Virus record (IMG/VR): IMGVR_UViG_3300035505_000328
Coordinates: 34,775 to 98,774 of that record
Reading direction: 5' to 3' (one strand)
Length of the DNA: 64,000 bases
Origin: a virus
Lineage: Duplodnaviria > Caudoviricetes
Each line of letters starts with the position of its first letter. The stretch's first letter is position 1. Under the pieces are notes generated by a model. It was not told where the DNA came from and searched no databases. It worked only from the letters and a program-made list of their open reading frames with translations. The translations under genes and the position numbers were made by a program. Of the stretch, positions 2,471 to 29,415 are shown one piece after another.

Positions 2471-3073
2471 TTATTTTTTTCTCAACTTGCTCTTGATATA
2501 AGACACAATACTTTCTCTATTAGAGCGGAATGTTAACTCACTAATATATAACATTAAATACTCATCTAATTCCTTAATCTGTTTATTCAGAACTGGAAGT
2601 AAATAATTATACTTAGGATTGTTACTATTATTGATACGGATAAGAATGTCTTCTAATGTTTTTCTTGTAGCAAGATATGTTTGGAAGTTCTTATCTTTAA
2701 TCTCTTTAGTAAGCTTATTATTCTGAAGAATCTTTAAGTAAACTTTATGCTTCCTGTCTGGAATTGTTGATGCTACGAACTGTCCTTCAGTATGTATAAT
2801 GTCTTGAATCTTTTTACATACAGCATCATCTTTAAAGTTATACTTAGGGTCAAGTAATGTTTCCAAGACAGCATTGAATTTAGAAACTTGTTCCATTTCT
2901 GATTCTTCTTGTCTTTTCTTAGCTTCTCTAAGTTTTCTAGCATGTTCCAATTCAAGTGCCTTATAATCAATTTCTTCTTGTTCAGGCTCTTCTTCTAATG
3001 GTTCAAGTTCAGGGTCATTAAGAAGTTCAACACCCATATCCAAGTATTCTTCATTGTCAATTTCTTTAGCCAT
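2471..3073 (-). CDS. Hypothetical protein (late-promoter gene)
   Basis: 200-aa ORF with SD GAAGGGAG and AACA-N6-TA at 3113-3102. Confidence 0.75.
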   Translation of the reverse strand: MAKEIDNEEYLDMGVELLNDPELEPLEEEPEQEEIDYKALELEHARKLREAKKRQEESEMEQVSKFNAVLETLLDPKYNFKDDAVCKKIQDIIHTEGQFVASTIPDRKHKVYLKILQNNKLTKEIKDKNFQTYLATRKTLEDILIRINNSNNPKYNYLLPVLNKQIKELDEYLMLYISELTFRSNRESIVSYIKSKLRKK

Positions 3074-3114: not shown

Positions 3115-3571
3115 CAAAAAGCAGGAAGCCCTTCAATCTACCATGCCTAACGTAGATTGAAGGGTTTGTTGTAATTTTGGATTTTGAGGTTTGTCGTATT
3201 ATATACTTTTGAAAGGCATTACAACCAAAAGTATACAAAACCATGAAATTTGGAATATACTATTCAATTTACGAGCAAATAGTATTTCACACAGCGTTTA
3301 TGTTGTAAAAACAAACATAGAAAGGAGGATTACACCAACCGCATAACAGAAATGTGTAATCAAACGAAAAACAAAAGTAGTTCTAAATAACGGACTTTCC
3401 AAAGCAAAACTATTACCAAAAATCGGAAGAAAAAAGTAATAGCAACCACACGAAATTTAGTTCAGAACGATTTGTTGTAGGATAATATAAGTATTACACT
3501 CTATTTAATAATCTAATCGTAGGACATCAACCAGACTAAATACTAAATATGAATATAATAAATACATTACT
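3115..3571 (-). ncRNA. Candidate ~455-nt U-rich multi-hairpin non-coding RNA
   Basis: AACA-tattat-TA promoter at 3582-3571, no ORF, a series of 7-10 bp hairpins, and a terminal 13-bp hairpin (3129-3164) followed by a U-tract on the minus strand. Confidence 0.5.
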
Positions 3572-3673
3572 AATAATATGTTTCTAAAAATTTTTACTAT
3601 TAGAAAAATCTACTTTTTTGTTGAAAAACAAGAGAAAACTGTAAATTATACTAAATTTGAGGAGGAAATTATT

Positions 3674-14121: not shown

Positions 14122-14233
14122 TTTTGTATGCTCCTTTCTATGAATTTATTATGGATTTGTTAAACATATATTATTTATTGGACTAAAGTTCATGTCAACT
14201 TTTTATTATTAATCAAAAAGGAGGAATTTCATT

Positions 14234-14437: not shown

Positions 14438-15559
14438 ATGAACATGAAACAAGTAGACGAATCAGGTAAACCATTTGAGGAAACTCATAAGTTTTGTACT
14501 GAGGAGTTGTTAGTTCCCAACCTTAACAAATGTGATATGGTTAGAATTAATATGTGGGATAACCACTTACCACAAGCTCTGGTACTTAATCATGGAGAAT
14601 TTCCAAATGTGTTTACAAACTTCGAAAATCAGGTTGGGGAGTATTCAACAGCATACTCTCGTTCAGATAGAGACTGGACAATCGTAGCTAAGTTAAGGAA
14701 AAACAAAATGGTTGTAACTTACGTATTGGTGGATGAAGATAATAATGTATCTATCAAAGATGAGTTTCCTGCAGAAAGAATTACAGAGCGTTATGGATAC
14801 AGACGTAAGAGACCAATCAACAAGAAGAAGAAAGATGAAGTTATTAAGAAGCATGAGTTAATGGATTACTCAACTACTTATGACAGACAACTTAACTTCT
14901 GTTATGGAGTAAACTTAAATGCAGTGTATTTGAGTTATGATAACTTGACGTATGAAGATGGTATTGTAATCTCAAAATCAGCTGCTAAGAAAATGAGTTC
15001 AACAAGTGTAGATGAAGTTGTTATTACATTAAATACAAACGACTTACTATTGAATTTATATGGAAACAATAAGTATTACAAATGTCTTCCAGATATAGGA
15101 GAAGAATTAGAAAGTCCTATCTTAGCTGCAAGAAGACGAATTAATTATGAATCAATCTTGTATGACTTGTCTACCAAGAATATCAGTACTTTGAACTATG
15201 ATACTGATGTGGCATTTATTATAGGTAAACATAGTGTTATCTATGATGTTGAGGTATTCTGTAATGGTGATGTAGAGACCTTGAAAGGTTATACTTACTA
15301 TAAGCAGATTCTTGATATAATGGACAATAACTACAAGTATTACAACAAGTTGTTCAAGATTTTAGATAAATATATGGATGACCCAGATTACAACTGTGAT
15401 GATGAGGTTAAATCACGTTGGAACACTTTACATCAACTGCTTTATCCAAATAAAACTTTTAGATATGATGGAAACACATTTGATAACCTTGTAATTAAGG
15501 TGAAGACATACAATGAGAATCCATTAGTAGTTGGTAGTAAAATCACAGGTCGTTATGGT
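14438..15559 (+). CDS. Non-virion RNA polymerase beta C-terminal subunit, exon 1
   Basis: RINMWDNHLPQA, YGVNLNAVY..YDNLTYEDGIVISKS (beta GxNxxVA...yNfEDs) and LVVGSKITGRYG. It lies in an early-promoter unit. Confidence 0.9.
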
Positions 15560-16639
15560 ATAAAGTAATTACCTCAACTTATTTCTCAATTAGGTAAGAA
15601 TATGGATAAAAGAAGAAAATATAAATATGATGAAAATTATTTTGCAGAAATTAATAGTAAAGAGAAAGCTTATTGGCTTGGATTTATAATGGCTGATGGA
15701 TATCTCTATGATAATACTAAAAGACAAAATAAATCTTCAGCAGTTGGAATGAGAATCAGATTATCTGTAAAAGATTCTGAATTATTAGAAAAACTTAATA
15801 AAGACATGAAATGTGATAAACCAATAAAAACAGTTAAAAATTATGGTAAATATGGAGGAGATTTAGCTGAGTTTCAATTAAATTCAAGACATATACTTGA
15901 TGACTTAAGAAAGATTGGTTACACATGTGGTAATAAAAGTGGAAATGAATTTCTAATTAAATTTAATAATTCAGTATTAACTAAGAATTTTATTCTTGGT
16001 ATATTTGATGGAGATGGTTCAGTTTCAATTAATAATGGAGGAAGAACTGCTGAATGGCAAATAGTTTCGTCACTGAAATTATGTGAAGAAGTACAAGATT
16101 TCCTTCTTCAAGAATTGCCTGAAATTAAGAAATTTCAAGCTATACACAAAAATAACAGAAATAAAGATAATGAGCTATACAGACTTAGAACAGGAAGTAA
16201 ACAGTATATAAGAATATTGTATGATTATTTCTATAATAGTGATTGTAGTAGCTCATTCTTAGAACGTAAACGAAGCATTATGAAAGATGTATGAGAAATA
16301 GGTTGTATTTAACTTAATAAGTAATTATTTGCCGTCTTAGATGAACCCACTAAGTAAATCTAAGACTATCAATGCAGAATTAAGCTGGAAGGGTTTAGTT
16401 ATCCTAATCAGAACCGAAGGCTAGATTTAACAGTCTGGTCAGGGGCAACGCATAGAGATTGAAACTTAAATGCGAATTTAAGAATATAATATCTCCACGA
16501 GGCTGCATTAGTGAGTGGGTCTTACACAGAGTTGTAAGAATTAAAAAGGTATGCTAGGCTGGATTGGAATTGACCAATCAATGAAAATGAGGGAAACCTC
16601 CAGAAGTATAGATAAAAAACTATACGTTAATAATATCCG
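15560..16639 (+). mobile_element. Group I intron in RNAP beta (1080 nt) with a LAGLIDADG gene in the P1 loop
   Basis: Splicing restores KITGRYG|NKGVIS. Exon AUGGU pairs with GCCGU (~16331) with a U.G pair. Core elements GCAACGCAUAG and AAAGGUAUGC are present, and the terminal G is at 16639. Confidence 0.92.
15602..16294 (+). CDS. Intron-encoded LAGLIDADG homing endonuclease
   Basis: Two motifs: AYWLGFIMADG and FILGIFDGDGS. Confidence 0.9.
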   Translation: MDKRRKYKYDENYFAEINSKEKAYWLGFIMADGYLYDNTKRQNKSSAVGMRIRLSVKDSELLEKLNKDMKCDKPIKTVKNYGKYGGDLAEFQLNSRHILDDLRKIGYTCGNKSGNEFLIKFNNSVLTKNFILGIFDGDGSVSINNGGRTAEWQIVSSLKLCEEVQDFLLQELPEIKKFQAIHKNNRNKDNELYRLRTGSKQYIRILYDYFYNSDCSSSFLERKRSIMKDV

Positions 16640-17593
16640 AACAAAGGGGTAATCTCTTCTATCGAAGAAGATGAGAACATGCCAACAAATGAGTATGGTG
16701 TTCATGCAGATGTATGTCTTAATCCCACTGGTGTTGTCGGACGTGAGAACATTGCACAGCTCTATGAGCAGGAATTAAACTTTATTGGTGATTGTGTGTT
16801 AAGACAAGCTGAAGATATTGAGGACATCGATGAACAGTTTGAATACATTCTTCCATTCTTTAAGATACTGGAAACTAAGTTCAATACACAGTATAAGTTC
16901 TATAAAAAAGAATGGAAACATGCAGACATCAATAGAAAAGAAAGAAGAATAAGAGAGTGGTATCAGTATGGACTATTTATTCATCAGCCACCATTCTTCG
17001 GTAATGTAACACCAGATATGATGAATGAGTTGTATGACCATTATGGTTTCGAACCTTATACAATGAGTTATATGGGTCAGGAGATTGAAACACCCATGAT
17101 TATGGGTAAGCTGTTCTTTATCAGATTAAAGCATGACCCTAAGTCTAAGACATCAATCAGAAGTTCAGGTGATGTAACCATTAACAATGTACCAGCTAAG
17201 AATAACAACTTTAAACATCATACAGCGTTGTTCTCACGTACACCAGTAAGAGTAGGTGAAATGGAGTTCACATCATTATTGACAACGAATAACATTGAAC
17301 CTGTAATGAGATATTTGTCTCAGAACTCAAGTAATCCTGAAGAACGTAAGAACATGATAAATCAGATTATCACAGCAAAAGACCCATTCAATATTGAGAA
17401 GATTGAACCGTTGAATAAATCTCAGTCAATAACTTCACAGATTGTTAAGACTGAGTTAGCAGCCATCTCATTAGAGAATGTACAGAGTAAAGAAGATTGC
17501 AATGACACATTTATGTCAAGTGATGATTTGATGGAAGCAGAAGAAATATTTGAATCTCTTGGTTGTAATGACGAAGATGAAGAAAATGATTAA
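16640..17593 (+). CDS. Non-virion RNA polymerase beta C-terminal subunit, exon 2 (spliced ~691 aa)
   Basis: NKGVIS, DVCLNPTGVVGRENIAQLYE, GKLFFIRLKH and RVGEME. Confidence 0.9.
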   Translation, partial: NKGVISSIEEDENMPTNEYGVHADVCLNPTGVVGRENIAQLYEQELNFIGDCVLRQAEDIEDIDEQFEYILPFFKILETKFNTQYKFYKKEWKHADINRKERRIREWYQYGLFIHQPPFFGNVTPDMMNELYDHYGFEPYTMSYMGQEIETPMIMGKLFFIRLKHDPKSKTSIRSSGDVTINNVPAKNNNFKHHTALFSRTPVRVGEMEFTSLLTTNNIEPVMRYLSQNSSNPEERKNMINQIITAKDPFNIEKIEPLNKSQSITSQIVKTELAAISLENVQSKEDCNDTFMSSDDLMEAEEIFESLGCNDEDEEND

Positions 17594-17654
17594 TATATTG
17601 AGTGGTAGGATACTAAGTTATCCTACCACTTGTTTTTAATGGAGGTATAACGAA

Positions 17655-19685
17655 ATGGATGTTAATAAAGAGAAAATGATAAGAGACTTGAAAAAGACAT
17701 TAGATAAGGCTTCTGATGCTTATTATAATTCAGGTGAATTGGTAATGACAGATGATGAATTTGACAGAGCTTGTATTACCTATAAGAAGTTGTCAGGTAA
17801 GACTTATGAAACAGCTACTAAACCTAGAAAGGGAAAGAAAGGTCAGAAGAATGTAAATGCTAAACATAAGTTTGAGAACTTAACAGGTACTATTGACTAT
17901 AAGTTCCCTAATATGGATGATGTTACTGATTGGTTGGAGAATTGCCTTAATGAATTAGGTATTAGTAAAAAGGAAGATATTCAAATACTAGTATCTAAGA
18001 AATATGATGGTAACTCTGCTGAAGGAGAGTTTGAGGAGAAGAAAGCAAAAAGATTCTTATCTAGAGGAGATAATGATTTAGGTAAGGATTTAACTGATAT
18101 CTTTTCTAAAGAAACTATTCCATTTAAGGATGACATGGGTGTAAGATACGAGGTTATGATGACTTATGAGAACTATTATAAGTTAGTAGCTGAACAGGAA
18201 GCTAGAGGAGAAAAGCCTTATGTAAATCCTCGTTCTTCAGTAGCAGGAATTTTAGCAATGGGCGATGGAGAAGGAGCTAAGTATAGGAAGTATCTTACAT
18301 TAGTTCCTTTAGCAGTACAGATTTCAAATAAGAAGCTTAATCGTTTAGATGAGCTTGAAATGATGGATGAACTCTTTGCTAAAGAGATTGAATTTGATGG
18401 AGAACTCTATGAGGGTAACTTTAAAGAAATCTTAGGTAATATTCAGGATTTCTATGACAGAATGATTGACATGAGAAACCACAGTGAAGATGAATTAGGA
18501 TACATGATTGATGGTATTGTAATCGAATTTATTGATGACGATATCAAAGAGCAATTAGGAAGATTTGCTAATGGAAGTCCTAAGTGGAGCTGTGCATTGA
18601 AATTCCCTTACATGGAGAAAACATCTGTAGTTACAGGATTAGTATTTGAAGCTTCACCAAATGGCTCTGGTAAGGTTACTCCATCAGTTACCTATGAACC
18701 AGTATATTTCAATGGTGCAAAGCAGACTAAGACTTCAATCGCTAACTATAAGCGGTTTAAAGAGTTACAACCACTAGGTGTTGGTACTAAGATTATGGTT
18801 CAGTACAGAAATGAGGTATTATCTTATGTTGAGAAACTTAATGTACCTGAGAATGATGAAGTTGAACCAGTACCATTCATCAAGAAGTGTCCAGTATGCT
18901 TTGGTAAACTTAGAATTCATAAGAATGATAAGGGAGAAGAAACCTTTGTATATTGTGATAATGACGATTGCTTTATGAAGAAAATCGGTAAGGTAAATCG
19001 TTATACAACAACAGTAGGAATTAAAGGAATTGAGATTTCTACATTACAGAAATTATTCTCAGCAGGACTTATTGAAACGATTGATGATTTGTATAATCTG
19101 AAATATCGTGATGTCTCTCAAGTAGAAGGGTTAGGTGAAGGTTCTGCTATGAACATTATTGATGCAATTAAACAGTCAGTTCCTAATGATTATGATATCT
19201 TAGCTGGATTAGGTATTGAAAACTTAGGTAGAGATAAAGCTAAGATTATTCTGTCTGAATGTAGTTTGGATAGTCTTTGTGATAAGGACTTTGTTCAGTC
19301 AGATGAATTTAAGACAAGAATTAACAATTTGGATGGTATCGGTGGTATTATGACAAAGAGAGTTTCTGAAGGTTTACTTGAATATAATTCTGTACTGAAT
19401 GGTATACTTGCTCATGTTAAATTTAAGACAATCAAACGTGATAAAGTAGAGAATCAGTTAATCTTTGTTCATACTGGTGATACTAACAAGACCTACTTCA
19501 AAGATAGAACTGAGTTGAAAGAGTATATCGAGAGTAAAGGTCATAAGATGACTGGAAGTATCAGTGGAAAGACTAACTACTTAATTACTGAGAATCCTAA
19601 CTCTGGAACTGTTAAGAATAAACAAGCAAAAGAGAAAGGTGTTAAGATTATAACATGTGCAGAGCTGAAAGATTTACTTGGTTAA
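17655..19685 (+). CDS. ligA: NAD+-dependent DNA ligase
   Basis: AYY...MTDDEFD, KYDG, NPR..AG, IDGIV, ALKFP, a Cys4 zinc finger, HhH repeats and a C-terminal BRCT domain. Confidence 0.95.
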   Translation: MDVNKEKMIRDLKKTLDKASDAYYNSGELVMTDDEFDRACITYKKLSGKTYETATKPRKGKKGQKNVNAKHKFENLTGTIDYKFPNMDDVTDWLENCLNELGISKKEDIQILVSKKYDGNSAEGEFEEKKAKRFLSRGDNDLGKDLTDIFSKETIPFKDDMGVRYEVMMTYENYYKLVAEQEARGEKPYVNPRSSVAGILAMGDGEGAKYRKYLTLVPLAVQISNKKLNRLDELEMMDELFAKEIEFDGELYEGNFKEILGNIQDFYDRMIDMRNHSEDELGYMIDGIVIEFIDDDIKEQLGRFANGSPKWSCALKFPYMEKTSVVTGLVFEASPNGSGKVTPSVTYEPVYFNGAKQTKTSIANYKRFKELQPLGVGTKIMVQYRNEVLSYVEKLNVPENDEVEPVPFIKKCPVCFGKLRIHKNDKGEETFVYCDNDDCFMKKIGKVNRYTTTVGIKGIEISTLQKLFSAGLIETIDDLYNLKYRDVSQVEGLGEGSAMNIIDAIKQSVPNDYDILAGLGIENLGRDKAKIILSECSLDSLCDKDFVQSDEFKTRINNLDGIGGIMTKRVSEGLLEYNSVLNGILAHVKFKTIKRDKVENQLIFVHTGDTNKTYFKDRTELKEYIESKGHKMTGSISGKTNYLITENPNSGTVKNKQAKEKGVKIITCAELKDLLG

Positions 19686-19694
19686 CAACCTTAT

Positions 19695-20150
19695 AAGAAA
19701 ACTTTTTGTATGTAAAATTGTGGGAAACTAATTATTGTAGGAATGTCATGTAACTATATGAAAGAATCATAACAACAGACATACACTTAAAAATTATTAT
19801 ATGCAATACACCAAATTCGAACAGCAAACCTCTTTTATTAAGTTGTGTGATATTCGTACAAAATTAGTTATCCGTTCTTGTAAGTGATTTAAAGGTAAAA
19901 ACCTGCACGTATATAAGTACATTGGCTTTGAGTGTTTCTAGAGCATGGAAAAGCATTTGGTAGGATTAATTTACTATGAATCATTTAGAGACAATATGGG
20001 TGATATAATGTTTGAGTTTGTTTTTTATTAAACTCACCAACAATCTTTGCACAAATAATTACACATTTTTATTTGTTGAATAATCAAAACGCACAGACAC
20101 ATCAAATATTTCCCTATTCTATTAATTTAGAATAGGGAAATATTTTTTTT
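19695..20150 (+). ncRNA. Candidate ~455-nt structured non-coding RNA
   Basis: AACA-acctta-TA promoter at 19684-19695, long G.U-containing stems that favour the + strand, and a strong terminator at 20104-20150. There is no credible ORF. Confidence 0.55.
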
Positions 20151-20184
20151 TAATATATAACAGCAAGAAAGTGAGGTAACACAC

Positions 20185-20874
20185 ATGGACTACTTTAACG
20201 ATGAATCTCTATTTGAAGATGACCTTTATTTAGAGGATTCTTTTGTTGATTATCAAGAAAGGCAAGGATATTCAATATCTACACCTTTATTAAATGAAAC
20301 AGAAGCAATGATACTTTCAGAAGAAACCAATATTGAAACCCCTGTATATATTGCTAAAGAATATTTAACAGGTAGAAGTGAAGGTCGTATTAAACAGCTA
20401 GAAGACGATTACAAGCATTGTGATACGCCAGCTAAGAAGAAAAGATTAATAGGACGTATTAATCGTTCTATATCTGTAGTTACAAAAATTCAAGACCCTA
20501 GTTTTTGGGGAAAAGCTAATGAAATAGCTACTGGAGCTACAGCTGTAGGAAGTGCTGCAATAGGTGGCAAAGTTTTATATGATGGTATAAAAGTTGCCAA
20601 AGCAGGTAAAGCTGTAGCACAAACTGGAGCTTTATTATCAGTATCAACTGGTGGAGCTGCTGGAGCTGCAACTACTGCTGCTGGAACAGAAATAGCTAAA
20701 GCTGGAGCTACTGCTGCTGGAGCTGGAGGAGCTGCTTTGGCAGTTGGGTTGGGACTTACTGCAATCCAAGCTAGTAGATTAATATCTCAAAGAAAGTCAG
20801 TACAACATAAGACCACAGAACATTTAAAGAAACTTAATGACCTTAAGAGAAAAACAGAAGCTTTGAATGTATAA
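20185..20874 (+). CDS. Probable head-internal/ejected protein with Gly-Ala-rich hydrophobic segments
   Basis: Acidic N-terminus with several L-x-E sites (LFE, YLE, LNE, LSE) followed by GA-rich stretches. Confidence 0.5.
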   Translation: MDYFNDESLFEDDLYLEDSFVDYQERQGYSISTPLLNETEAMILSEETNIETPVYIAKEYLTGRSEGRIKQLEDDYKHCDTPAKKKRLIGRINRSISVVTKIQDPSFWGKANEIATGATAVGSAAIGGKVLYDGIKVAKAGKAVAQTGALLSVSTGGAAGAATTAAGTEIAKAGATAAGAGGAALAVGLGLTAIQASRLISQRKSVQHKTTEHLKKLNDLKRKTEALNV

Positions 20875-20958
20875 TTATGGAGGTATATAGAAAAAAAAAA
20901 GAAACCTCGTTATCAGGTACAGAAAAACTAATGTTTATTCTGTTTACAAAGGATGCAA

Positions 20959-21237
20959 TTATACTCTTGCGAATATAATTGCATCCTTTGCCCCGAACTC
21001 TTTTATAAAGAATTCGGGAAAGTCATGGAGTACGACTTTACCGTTACGCTCAAGATTGAACATAACAGCACTCATATTTCGTAGCTCCATGTCAGCTTTC
21101 AGACCTGAAAGCTGACTAGGGGAGTAGTTTTTGATTCTTACAGAAACTACTACACCACTCCCCTTTTTCTGTGCAGAAACTTTTTTATCGAGGTTCTGCC
21201 ATACCTCGAATACGAATTTATCCATAATAATCACCAT
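20959..21237 (-). CDS. Small hypothetical early protein
   Basis: 92-aa ORF with ATATATTAT at 21324-21316; start uncertain. Confidence 0.65.
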   Translation of the reverse strand: MVIIMDKFVFEVWQNLDKKVSAQKKGSGVVVSVRIKNYSPSQLSGLKADMELRNMSAVMFNLERNGKVVLHDFPEFFIKEFGAKDAIIFARV

Positions 21238-21398
21238 TCAAGAGGTCTGGACGTTAACCTCTTGCCTTTCCTTTTTTTTTTTGTTTTATGTAATAACCTA
21301 CATGATTCTATAACGATAATATATAAAAAAAAAGGTAATTTTACGATTTTAATAAAACAGGAGAATACACCATTATGGTGTATTCTCCCTTTTAATTC

Positions 21399-23727: not shown

Positions 23728-24615
23728 TTAATCGTCGTCTCTAATCCACCTATCTTGTCTTAATACTAATGGGTCTGTAAATGCGTCTACAACATTATCT
23801 TTCATTGCTTGTCGTGTTATTGCATACTGCTGATACTCTTGTATCATATCCTTCATTTTTTCAAAGGTTTTTGAATGTTGCTCACAATAGTCAGTATCCT
23901 CATATTTACGTATAGATACCATTAGCCTGAATAATACAAATGCTAGACCTTCATACATTAGATATTTCCTAAAAGCATATATGAAGTCTATTACATCTTG
24001 AAAACCCATATTGTTAAGTAATTTTAATAGATGGCTGACCATACCCCTTCCTTTAATCATTCCCCCTCCTCCATAATTATGTCGATATGCAAATATTAAA
24101 TTTATCAGCAAATCAACTAAGTTTGATGATACAACTGCCCAAAAACATAAATTCATTTTACAGTCATCTGTTAACCTTTCGGATATCATTTGCTGTAAAG
24201 TTGCTCTTGCGTCTTTCACACCATACATAGTAGTATCACTATGAATACCACATTCCTTTTTTGAGTGCCATCTAGTATAGAACAAAAAGTTCCTAGATGA
24301 ATTAGGTATAAAGAATCCAACATTTGTTACTTCTATACACATACTTAAGAAATCTCTGTAAGTAATTTCTAAGTCAAATAATTCTTCCTTAGTTAAATTA
24401 AGCTCACATCGTGAAATCCTTGTTTTTGCACCAGTGATTTCTGTAAAGTGAGTATTCAAGTAAAAGTTAAAAAACTCTAACACAGGATACTCACTTTTAA
24501 GAATTTTCTTTCTAAGATTTCTAGCTTCTTTGTTATTTTGCTTTACATATGCTTCCTTTGAATAGTATCTCTCAAATACGTCCATATGAATTCTCATAGA
24601 ATTATTTTTATCCAA
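23728..24615 (-). CDS. Paralog-array protein 3
   Basis: YPVLEFFN, EELFDLEITYRDF, FWAVVS and IDFI...LMYEGLA. Confidence 0.8.
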   Translation of the reverse strand: MDKNNSMRIHMDVFERYYSKEAYVKQNNKEARNLRKKILKSEYPVLEFFNFYLNTHFTEITGAKTRISRCELNLTKEELFDLEITYRDFLSMCIEVTNVGFFIPNSSRNFLFYTRWHSKKECGIHSDTTMYGVKDARATLQQMISERLTDDCKMNLCFWAVVSSNLVDLLINLIFAYRHNYGGGGMIKGRGMVSHLLKLLNNMGFQDVIDFIYAFRKYLMYEGLAFVLFRLMVSIRKYEDTDYCEQHSKTFEKMKDMIQEYQQYAITRQAMKDNVVDAFTDPLVLRQDRWIRDDD

Positions 24616-26448: not shown

Positions 26449-26880
26449 TTAATGAGACTTGAAAGCGTGGTCAAAATACTCTGGGAATAACCTATTAAGT
26501 ATCTCAACTTCTTCATCAGTACACTTTCTGTTCTCGCTGATTGAGAAGACCTGACTATCTTCAGAACCTTCATCAATCCTAATACAGTTCCAGACAAAGT
26601 CTTCTTTGTTATAAGCATCAATATCAACTGAAGCCATATACCAACCTTGATAGTTGTGAAGCTTTGATAAGTCAATACAATCTTTTTCATAATCATACTG
26701 ACATAATTCTCTGAAACCTCCATCCTTCGTAGGTCTTACAACCCGAAAGATTTTGAATCCTGAAGCTACAAACGTTCTGTCATCACCTTGTTTGATAACT
26801 TCATTCTGAACAATGTTCTGCTTTTCATAAAGCAAAACATTGTCTTCTGTTATATGGTCAACTGTATTTGGTTTAGCCAT
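26449..26880 (-). CDS. Hypothetical protein
   Basis: 143 aa, SD AAGGAGG. Confidence 0.75.
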   Translation of the reverse strand: MAKPNTVDHITEDNVLLYEKQNIVQNEVIKQGDDRTFVASGFKIFRVVRPTKDGGFRELCQYDYEKDCIDLSKLHNYQGWYMASVDIDAYNKEDFVWNCIRIDEGSEDSQVFSISENRKCTDEEVEILNRLFPEYFDHAFKSH

Positions 26881-27933: not shown

Positions 27934-29415
27934 CTACTTTCCACTGTTGACTATAATGTTACCCTCTAAATCTTGGAATACAGGTCTTATAGCACTTACA
28001 ACCTTTTCTCCTCGACCAGCACAACATGTGGTTGATTCCAGCCAAACCCTAACTGGTTTCTTATCTTCTCCATGACCTCTCCAATAAGTGTGCCAATGAC
28101 CCCTACGCACATACTCATAGCTATGAGCAGAGCCATCATGGTGTTGTACATTATCCAAACCTAACTCTTTTCGTTCATACTCCTTACGAAGATTAGAAAT
28201 CTGGCTTAACAGATTATTTCTTTTCTTCGGAGTACTCCCTACCCTTTTTCTAGTTTCTTGCTTCGCATTAACTTCTTTCTTCTCTTTTCTTCTACGTTCT
28301 TTTTGGATTGGATGAAGAAGAATGAAGTTAATGATTAGGAAGTATGCAGCTCCAGCAAACATATGAGCAGCACATGCCTCATAGACACCTTTACGTTTCT
28401 CATTGGACTTAACTAAAATGTCCTCAACAGAAACACATCTGTCTAAGATTGCTCCCATCCCAAAAATTGCTTCCACATTATCGAATTCATACCATTTGAC
28501 GTTTGCTAAGTTGTCTTCATCAATATGTGGAACTGCATTTTCTTCTAACTTCTTAACAATGCCAACTTCTGAAGTAACTGCTTCCCGAACTGGAAGTCTC
28601 TCAGATAAATGTTTTGCAGCTTCTTCTTCAGTCTTATATGCTACAGCGTTAGAAATAACCCTTAACTCTCCACCAATCATTCGAAAATCAAAGAGCTGAT
28701 AAAAGATATCATCTGATTCTTCATACACTTTACCAGATTTGATTGCCAAACGTAAAGATGGTAATGGACAAGTTTCTGATATCTCGTCGAATAACTCTGA
28801 TGTTTTCAGTTGTCCATTACTACGTTTCACCATATCGTGATATAAGTCCATAACAGCTTCCATCTCTTCCAAGTTGCTTACAATCATTTGCTTAGATGTA
28901 GTGTTTACAGACTTAATCGTAGTAAAAGCTGGGTTGATTGTGCTTAGTCGTTTGAGAATGAACTCAAGTTCCTCAAGATGTTTAATTATCTTCCCCATAG
29001 AAAAAGACTTCTTGAAACTCATAATACTTCTGTATTCATCATCAAACTTCCTTACACTTGCCAGTGCTTTTGACACATCTTTCAGTTCAACATCATAGAA
29101 CTTCTGACCTGAATCCATGTATCTACGCACATCCCTTGTTTTCGTGTGTCTTGGTGTGTTTATTAAAAACACAATATCAGCAAGCATGTTAATTACTTCC
29201 TCATCTGAATAATCACCTGCAGACAATAATACAGCTATTGCTCTATCAGCAGGATTCTTAGATTCTGAAAGCTTTCTCATCTTGTTGATGTTGGCTATAT
29301 CAGCCATTTGTCGGTTCATAGAGAAATCTCTTAAACCATATGGGTTATTGCCAAAGCTACCTCCTTTCATAATACTTGACAAATCTCCAAACTTAGTAAA
29401 ATTGTTGTTCATCAT
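27934..29415 (-). CDS. Early protein with an AcrVA2/FinQ-like C-terminal RRGHWH motif
   Basis: YVRRGHWHTYWRG...VRVW near the C-terminus; early motif at 29473-29465. Confidence 0.55.
   Translation of the reverse strand: MMNNNFTKFGDLSSIMKGGSFGNNPYGLRDFSMNRQMADIANINKMRKLSESKNPADRAIAVLLSAGDYSDEEVINMLADIVFLINTPRHTKTRDVRRYMDSGQKFYDVELKDVSKALASVRKFDDEYRSIMSFKKSFSMGKIIKHLEELEFILKRLSTINPAFTTIKSVNTTSKQMIVSNLEEMEAVMDLYHDMVKRSNGQLKTSELFDEISETCPLPSLRLAIKSGKVYEESDDIFYQLFDFRMIGGELRVISNAVAYKTEEEAAKHLSERLPVREAVTSEVGIVKKLEENAVPHIDEDNLANVKWYEFDNVEAIFGMGAILDRCVSVEDILVKSNEKRKGVYEACAAHMFAGAAYFLIINFILLHPIQKERRRKEKKEVNAKQETRKRVGSTPKKRNNLLSQISNLRKEYERKELGLDNVQHHDGSAHSYEYVRRGHWHTYWRGHGEDKKPVRVWLESTTCCAGRGEKVVSAIRPVFQDLEGNIIVNSGK

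Follow-up and report, generated by a model that had tools for sequence, protein, structure and literature searches.

Does the gene-free stretch of ~460 bases that follows the gene for the NAD-dependent DNA ligase in a giant phage not yet cultured encode an RNA of its own, serve the messages on either side of it, or do nothing at all? The stretch (19686-20184, + strand, here termed the unit) lies in a window of 64,000 nucleotides, bases 34775-98774 of the 98,774-bp IMG/VR viral contig IMGVR_UViG_3300035505_000328, which is estimated to be 38% complete, and all coordinates are those of the window unless the contig is named. An earlier reading of this DNA, made without database searches and hereafter called the sequence-only reading, had proposed a late-promoter unit of ~455 nt as a candidate new large phage non-coding RNA (ncRNA). 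We find the unit to be non-coding, predicted to be structured on the + strand and to end in a strong terminator, and we interpret it tentatively, as quite possibly, if not yet probably, a lineage-specific, transcribed and + strand-structured intercistronic spacer that acts in cis in an AR9-like operon; the proposed status of a stand-alone new large ncRNA is unproven.

The stretch after the ligase gene is free of genes

All frames of 19686-20184 were free of open reading frames (ORFs), the longest stop-to-stop frame being 46 amino acids, which bears out the non-coding stretch that had been claimed, and the density of stop codons over all frames was approximately that of random AT-rich sequence (the region has 27-30% GC). 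TAA occurs at least four times in each frame, so that reassigning any one stop codon would still leave the unit closed; a hidden protein gene, or one with recoded stops, was rejected on the same ground and because the small ORFs present have no proper Shine-Dalgarno (SD) sequence. An intron of the ligase was also rejected, the ligase being intact to its C-terminus. The gene is complete (17655-19685, + strand) and the unit begins at its stop codon; the protein is matched by Pfam and PHROG, is 38% identical to the PBS1/AR9 ligase over residues 9-676, and its alignment with the closest metagenomic ligases stops at the same C-terminus. These closest ligases anywhere, 63-67% identical, lie on short metagenome contigs; among them are P0002 (63%) and P0020 (67%, a C-terminal fragment with ~2 kb of DNA beyond it), on contigs of 2.9-3.3 kb. 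Of complete genomes the nearest are G001 (319 kb) and G002 (299 kb), whose ligases share 53-57% identity.

Judged by its sequence, the contig belongs among the AR9/PBS1-like giant phages, as an uncultured relative of Bacillus phage AR9, a placement that follows from the ligase, a split RNA polymerase (RNAP) beta gene, an early promoter motif and AACA-N6-TA sites. The early motif, (A)TATATATTATTAAT(ATG), occurs ~45-60 nt upstream of many genes over the whole contig and is close to the AR9 version of the early promoter, which has the consensus AAATATATATTAT-N6-G (PMC5312081). For late promoters the AR9 consensus is AACA-N6-TA/G (PMC5312081), and AR9-type AACA-N6-TA sites are found ~29 nt upstream of many contig genes. 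The contig is 90% coding. A greedy ORF call, rough as it is, leaves only eight gaps of at least 250 nt in it, the unit among them; of these, at least two are overlapping-ORF artefacts and at least two lie within intron-split genes.

Predicted fold of the unit

Folding of the + strand predicts three structured domains followed by a terminator. Domain 1 (19723-19873) is a long-range hairpin of 35-39 bp that closes a 65-nt A/C-rich loop (19766-19830; 72% A+C, 6% G), and the G-poor loop is predicted to stay unpaired. Its helices of 7, 5, 15 and 8 bp (19727-19765 with 19831-19868), which reach 39 bp via GGA/UCC, are interrupted by a single bulge, a G-G mismatch and a 2x2 internal loop, with pair probabilities of 0.95-0.98. 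The stem of ~28 bp described in the sequence-only reading is thus present and indeed longer, the loop being 65 nt where ~85 nt had been given; as for the remark there that positions outside Watson-Crick pairing are mostly G.U, this helix has five G.U and no A.C. Domain 2 (19869-20002, + strand only) is a branched hairpin with ~50 predicted pairs, 12 of them G.U, at pair probabilities of 0.66-0.98. It is followed at 20009-20086 (+ strand) by two small hairpins (20009-20042 and 20051-20076) and a 3-bp hairpin; the small hairpins TGAGTTT/AAACTCA and ACAAATAA/TTATTTGT, both described earlier, were recovered at probabilities of 0.97 and 0.83. The long perfect terminator with a T-run claimed for the 3' end is likewise found, as an 18-bp perfect stem with a 6-nt loop and T9 (20104-20153, stem-loop 20104-20145; probability 0.99), and acts as a terminator on the + strand only, the minus strand having no T-run. 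Two further proposals fared less well: a stem between TGTTTCTAGA and TTTAGAGACA is possible but is out-competed by other pairings in both the minimum free energy and the centroid structure, and pairing of the 5' and 3' ends is weak (probability 0.2-0.34).

Helices were scored without gaps (G-C 3, A-U 2, G-U 1, mismatch -4) against dinucleotide shuffles as the null. The long helix scored 44, compared with 25.5 +/- 2.9 for the shuffles, none of 150 of which reached 44, and the best helix of the minus strand scored 27, near background. Within the 98.8-kb contig it ranks third, most other top scorers being terminators. With a score of 51, the top long-range helix of the contig spans 35 positions around a loop of 77 nt; it is on the minus strand at contig 23912-24058 (window -10863 to -10717), and coding sequence covers all of it.

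Folding energies were also compared with shuffles on both strands. With the terminator included, the whole unit had a z-score of -5.73 on the + strand and -2.20 on the minus strand, and without it -2.36 and +0.83 respectively. Among the parts, whose z-scores are inflated as the domain limits were picked after folding, domain 1 gave -4.46 on the + strand and -1.15 on the minus strand, domain 2 gave -3.13 (-33.6 kcal/mol, with none of 200 shuffles as good) and +0.47 (-13.1 kcal/mol), and the 3' hairpins at 20009-20086 gave -2.45 and -0.78. Predicted structure specific to the + strand in each domain is, on these models, credible.

The predominance of G.U over A.C in the domain 1 helix (five versus none) has a binomial p of ~0.03. 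A mutation bias from C to U acting on one strand could yield the same pattern, and, because no homologue of the unit was found in the collections searched, the suggestion of selection on RNA structure made in the sequence-only reading rests on one sequence. The wobble pairs also bear on whether the unit works as DNA, for instance by forming a cruciform, as an origin of replication or as a site for recombination or packaging, an idea to which its AT-richness, its long inverted repeat and its position at a break in synteny (see below) are favourable. Such an element is very improbable: we found no iterons or families of direct repeats, the arms stand 65 nt apart and pair well only by virtue of G.T wobble on one strand, a bias that a duplex site would lack, and a turn in GC skew near 20900 merely tracks the change in gene orientation.

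Promoter motif and transcription context

The AR9-type late motif AACA-N6-T(A/G) is present on the transcribed strand as AACAACCTTATA (19684-19695), which overlaps the TAA of the ligase (19683-19685) and predicts a start at A19695. The motif claimed as a late promoter, AACA-acctta-TA, thus exists and overlaps the ligase stop; as a promoter it could not be distinguished from a chance motif. The window has 67 copies of AACA-N6-TA against an expected 87, hence no enrichment, and of the 174 AACA-N6-T(A/G) sites of the contig 31 are intergenic, many of them 20-50 nt upstream of start codons. A position weight matrix (PWM) was built from 22 likely real sites, with their leave-one-out range as the reference; the site at 19684 scored 7.84, inside that range, but so high a score was also reached by 22 of 142 chance copies in coding DNA (15%). 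Moreover, likely real sites stand mostly 20-50 nt (overall 20-200 nt) from a start codon, and the motif at 19684 is 490 nt from the next one, with a terminator between. From its sequence, a late promoter at the ligase stop is plausible and not established, and our judgement leans against it.

An alternative view is that the unit is a stand-alone, trans-acting late ncRNA of ~455 nt, made by the non-virion RNAP of the phage from A19695 to the terminator at 20104, whose 65-nt A/C-rich loop would act as a sponge, a decoy or an antisense regulator by binding an RNA or a protein of the host or the phage. The motif does fit the AR9 late consensus, with a PWM score in the range of likely real sites, and closely resembles AACAAACTTATA, which stands 29 nt upstream of the gene at 2471-3073; a strong terminator lies on the same strand, the structure is specific to that strand and leaves a G-poor loop unpaired, two further ORF-poor structured units of similar size occur in the contig, and orphan ORF-free transcripts of 236-619 nt have been documented in the jumbo phage PA5oct (PMC7318152). 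Set against this are the lack of enrichment of the motif, its frequency of equal chance copies and its distance from a start beyond a terminator, together with the absence of a complementary target in the 98.8 kb, of any homologue and hence of covariation, and of any sequence shared with the first of the two other units. Taken together we regard a stand-alone ncRNA as distinctly doubtful. A 6S-like mimic of a late promoter template was rejected, as inspection found no TA/CA-N6-TGTT on the RNA and there is no motif on the minus strand.

Transcription from upstream does not depend on the motif. An early-type promoter motif, aaacaTATATTATttattgg, near 14167 (14162-14185, + strand) heads a + strand operon that takes in both the RNAP beta gene and the ligase. 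The (non-virion) RNAP beta gene is split (14438-15568 and 16679-17593), with an ORF for a LAGLIDADG endonuclease in between (15602-16294); the stretch that splits it is presumably a group I intron, and no Rfam intron model reached threshold over 14438-17593. Between this gene and the ligase (17599-17654, + strand) stands a 14-bp hairpin with T5, followed at once by the SD sequence and ATG of the ligase, so that there is no room for a promoter. The same layout, a terminator and then a gene without a promoter, is repeated at 20104-20185, and on account of this repetition leaky terminators seem to serve as internal valves of operons in this phage. No + strand terminator was found between the ligase stop and 20104, from which it follows that the unit would be transcribed as the 3' untranslated region (UTR) of the ligase whether or not it has a promoter of its own.

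Beyond the terminator lies an orphan ORF of 229 amino acids (20185-20874, + strand; SD GTGAGGT), which starts 31 nt after the T-run. Neither the early motif (TATATTAT) nor the late motif was found upstream of it. Since it has no promoter motif of its own, ORF 20185 is probably reached by read-through, and the unit would then be its leader. Its protein has no homologue besides itself among 5.8 billion proteins and no match in Pfam, PHROG, NCBIfam or PADLOC. A type III toxin-antitoxin system (ToxIN-like) was rejected, since such a locus has tandem repeats of ~34-36 nt upstream of its terminator and a ToxN/AbiQ-type toxin gene downstream, whereas there is no family of direct repeats here and no toxin family is matched by ORF 20185; the resemblance is limited to the order promoter-RNA-terminator-gene.

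Search for relatives and synteny

A search of the whole window with Rfam 15 gave no match at gathering thresholds, including the models for ROOL, GOLLD, raiA, 6S, group I and II introns, RNase P, tmRNA, riboswitches and T-box, and ARAGORN found no tRNA or tmRNA gene in the window, in agreement with the earlier statement that the unit is not a tRNA, tmRNA, RNase P or intron. With permissive filters and E-values up to 10 over 19500-20300, Rfam returned solely microRNA and small RNA (sRNA) models on the terminator hairpin, far below threshold. A riboswitch or attenuator leader was rejected, as no aptamer model matched and inspection revealed no competing antiterminator.

No relative of the unit was detected by blastn among 50,697 phage records, by exact-pattern scans of IMG/VR and metagenome contigs, or by BLAST among 401 sampled Bacillota genomes, and a pattern scan of 185,579 species genomes gave 82 chance 16-mer matches, none of which extended beyond 27 nt. 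In the complete relatives G001-G003 neither BLAST nor two single-sequence covariance models (for domains 1 and 2) detected a homologue; the sole match to a covariance model scored 24 bits, fell within a coding region and did not include the main stem. Near-identical contigs do exist, P0001 being present on four contigs and P0094 (the ligase C-terminus) being 100% identical on a contig of 9,545 nt.

Comparison of ligase neighbourhoods places the unit at a break in synteny. In three relatives (L038 7095-7844, L039 7080-7871 and L006 3324-3731) a homologue of the window ORF 26449-26880 lies within ~20-550 nt after the ligase; here this ORF is on the opposite strand and 6.8 kb from the ligase. With the post-ligase gene of the relatives thus displaced, the unit opens an orphan, lineage-specific block (19686-~26400) that comprises the unit itself, ORF 20185, an array of hairpins (20875-21300) and an array of six paralogues. 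A decayed copy of the relatives' post-ligase gene was rejected, since its homologue is 26449-26880 on the minus strand and both tblastn and tblastx were negative in the unit.

The unit could also be a non-functional relic, either a scar of the rearrangement or insertion that brought in the orphan block, or a decayed gene or small mobile element with inverted ends, in which case the inverted repeat would be a leftover and the G.U bias would stem from strand-biased C-to-U mutation rather than selection. The displaced post-ligase gene, the orphan status shared by the unit, ORF 20185 and the hairpin array, the random-like density of stop codons and a folding energy that does not stand out from those of real windows of the contig all suit a relic. 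A helix far above shuffles on one strand only, with the same strand bias in all three sub-domains, does not, nor does the lack of residual protein similarity to the relatives' ligase-adjacent genes, and a genome that is 90% coding rarely keeps 420 nt of junk. An origin from a miniature inverted-repeat transposable element (MITE) or a repetitive extragenic palindromic (REP)-like repeat was rejected, as the unit is single copy in the contig, has no copy in G001-G003, in the 401 Bacillota genomes or among the 16-mer matches in the 185,579 species genomes, and showed no flanking target-site duplication. We hold a relic to be unlikely, whilst giving it serious consideration.

A proposed structured spacer acting in cis

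The interpretation we favour, that of a structured intercistronic spacer acting in cis, builds on the non-coding nature of the unit, its predicted + strand structure, the terminator, the lack of a promoter for ORF 20185 and the layout of the operon. Transcription would start from the early-type promoter near 14167, pass through the split RNAP beta gene and the leaky terminator at 17599 into the ligase, and read on past the ligase into the 420-nt stretch up to the terminator at 20104. The stretch would then be at least the 3'UTR of the ligase, and in addition the leader of ORF 20185, and its RNA would fold into the 35-39-bp hairpin with the 65-nt A/C-rich loop, the branched hairpin, the two small hairpins and the terminator. 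RNase III substrates have a largely uninterrupted RNA duplex of ~20 bp or more, and the 15-bp and 8-bp helices stacked in the long stem of domain 1 are predicted to provide one. Like such substrates, the long double-stranded stems may determine how the ligase message is processed or how stable it is, and the orphan gene at 20185 would receive only as much transcription as the strong terminator lets through. If the motif at 19684 were active, a separate late RNA of ~455 nt would also be made and would share the operon terminator, and a promoter of its own with a shared terminator would be the layout of an sRNA derived from a 3'UTR. That the unit is actually transcribed and processed, and that it affects expression, are steps we infer.

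Several observations limit or weigh against this interpretation. Once the terminator is removed the z-score of the whole unit drops to just -2.36, and the inflation of the domain z-scores noted above must be kept in mind. Around 7% of the 160-nt windows of the contig equal or beat the window of the long stem in raw energy, the hairpin being ordinary in this respect owing to its richness in A-U pairs and the energetic cost of its large loop. With no homologue in any collection searched there is neither covariation nor any sign of conservation. The nearest relatives whose DNA was compared have a gap of only ~60-140 nt after the ligase, so a long spacer is not needed for ligase expression. By inspection, no antiterminator competes with the terminator at 20104, the best upstream partner being a 6-bp GGGAAA/UUUCCC pairing as opposed to the 18-bp perfect stem, and the absence of an alternative pairing leaves nothing that speaks for regulated attenuation. 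Processing by RNase III, finally, is something that we purely infer.

Comparison with known systems

By analogy, the unit is most like an orphan ncRNA of a jumbo phage, such as ncRNA001-004 of PA5oct. These are ORF-free, one of them is 451 nt long, and they have no known function and no similarity outside the closest strain (PMC7318152). Freedom from ORFs, similar length, a giant phage as the source and orphan status are common to both, but the PA5oct RNAs are defined by measured transcripts and the unit by its sequence, and PA5oct is unrelated to the AR9-like phages and uses the host RNAP. AR9 itself offers a second comparison, as its transcripts have 5'UTRs of 26-491 nt (PMC5312081). Coming from the same phage group with the same late consensus, the leader of ~490 nt that ORF 20185 would have lies at the top of that range; in contrast to AR9 leaders, a very strong terminator here separates leader and gene, and none of the AR9 leaders is known to have a structure or a function.

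The type I 3'UTR-derived sRNAs of enterobacteria, such as DapZ and MicL, are transcribed from a promoter of their own that lies where the upstream gene ends, and are 50-300 nt long, Hfq-dependent and conserved. As in these, a promoter, here a candidate one, overlaps the final part of the upstream coding sequence, and the terminator is also that of the upstream message; the unit differs in its length of ~455 nt, in belonging to a phage with its own polymerases and in that its promoter is a candidate. The RNase III hairpins of the early mRNA of T7 are imperfect stems of at least 20 bp between cistrons which, once cleaved, leave the upstream message with a hairpin that protects its 3' end. Imperfect stems of at least 20 bp between the cistrons of an operon are what the unit has in common with these sites, although those of T7 have small internal and short apical loops and the unit an apical loop of 65 nt. 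ROOL and GOLLD RNAs, which are large, structured and linked to phages and prophages, and the raiA and 6S RNAs are comparable in their size of several hundred nt and their association with the genomes of Gram-positive phages; unlike them, the unit is without a match in Rfam 15, less intricately folded and without relatives.

Other stretches of the contig

A more striking structure lies ~700 nt downstream of the unit. On the minus strand at 20875-21300, downstream of an early-type promoter at ~21323, ~10 different and mostly perfect hairpins form an array that is closed by pairing of an A-run with a U-run. Over its 426 nt the array has an energy of -165.6 kcal/mol and a z-score of -13.9 (-11.1 for a 226-nt core), which makes it the strongest local structure of the whole contig. 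It overlaps an ORF of 92 amino acids (20959-21237) that belongs to no family and whose exact translation is absent from the protein collection, and the array itself has no match in Rfam or among the phages and no copy in the relatives. Rather than a gene, the array may be a structured RNA made early, and as a candidate it is stronger than the unit at 19695-20150.

Two other stretches deserve mention. The first ORF-less unit of the window (3115-3571, minus strand) has z-scores of -5.45 on the minus and -3.46 on the + strand; that the unit after the ligase is a paralogue of it (3115-3582) was rejected, the two having no sequence similarity. Outside the window, at contig 28444-29054 (L131 645-1255), an ORF-free gap of 611 nt is flanked on the minus strand by a gene upstream and a terminator (L131 440-410) downstream, with two + strand AACA-N6-T(A/G) motifs in or just upstream of it; the gap could represent a further long non-coding unit, or else an intron that has no ORF.

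One might go further and see in 3115-3571 (minus), 19695-20150 (+) and 20875-21300 (minus) three unrelated orphan, ORF-poor RNAs of ~430-460 nt, each with its own promoter and terminator and each acting in trans; the 65-nt A/C-rich loop of 19695-20150 would then be a sponge, or a decoy, that occupies a factor of the host or a sensor of its defences. We consider this improbable. Were it true, RNA-only accessory genes would be a regular part of the islands of AR9-like phages.

Implications

To our knowledge, although transcription has been mapped in the AR9 group, no RNA gene beyond a tRNA has been described there. Should the unit prove to be a functional RNA, it would join the very few long ncRNAs known from giant phages and would be the first in the AR9 group, with its uracil-containing DNA and two polymerases. 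As a prediction from a single sequence of an uncultured phage, its immediate value is that of a pointer for transcript mapping. The orphan island that it opens, with an adjoining and stronger array of hairpins, suggests that annotation centred on proteins may miss RNA functions in these phages.

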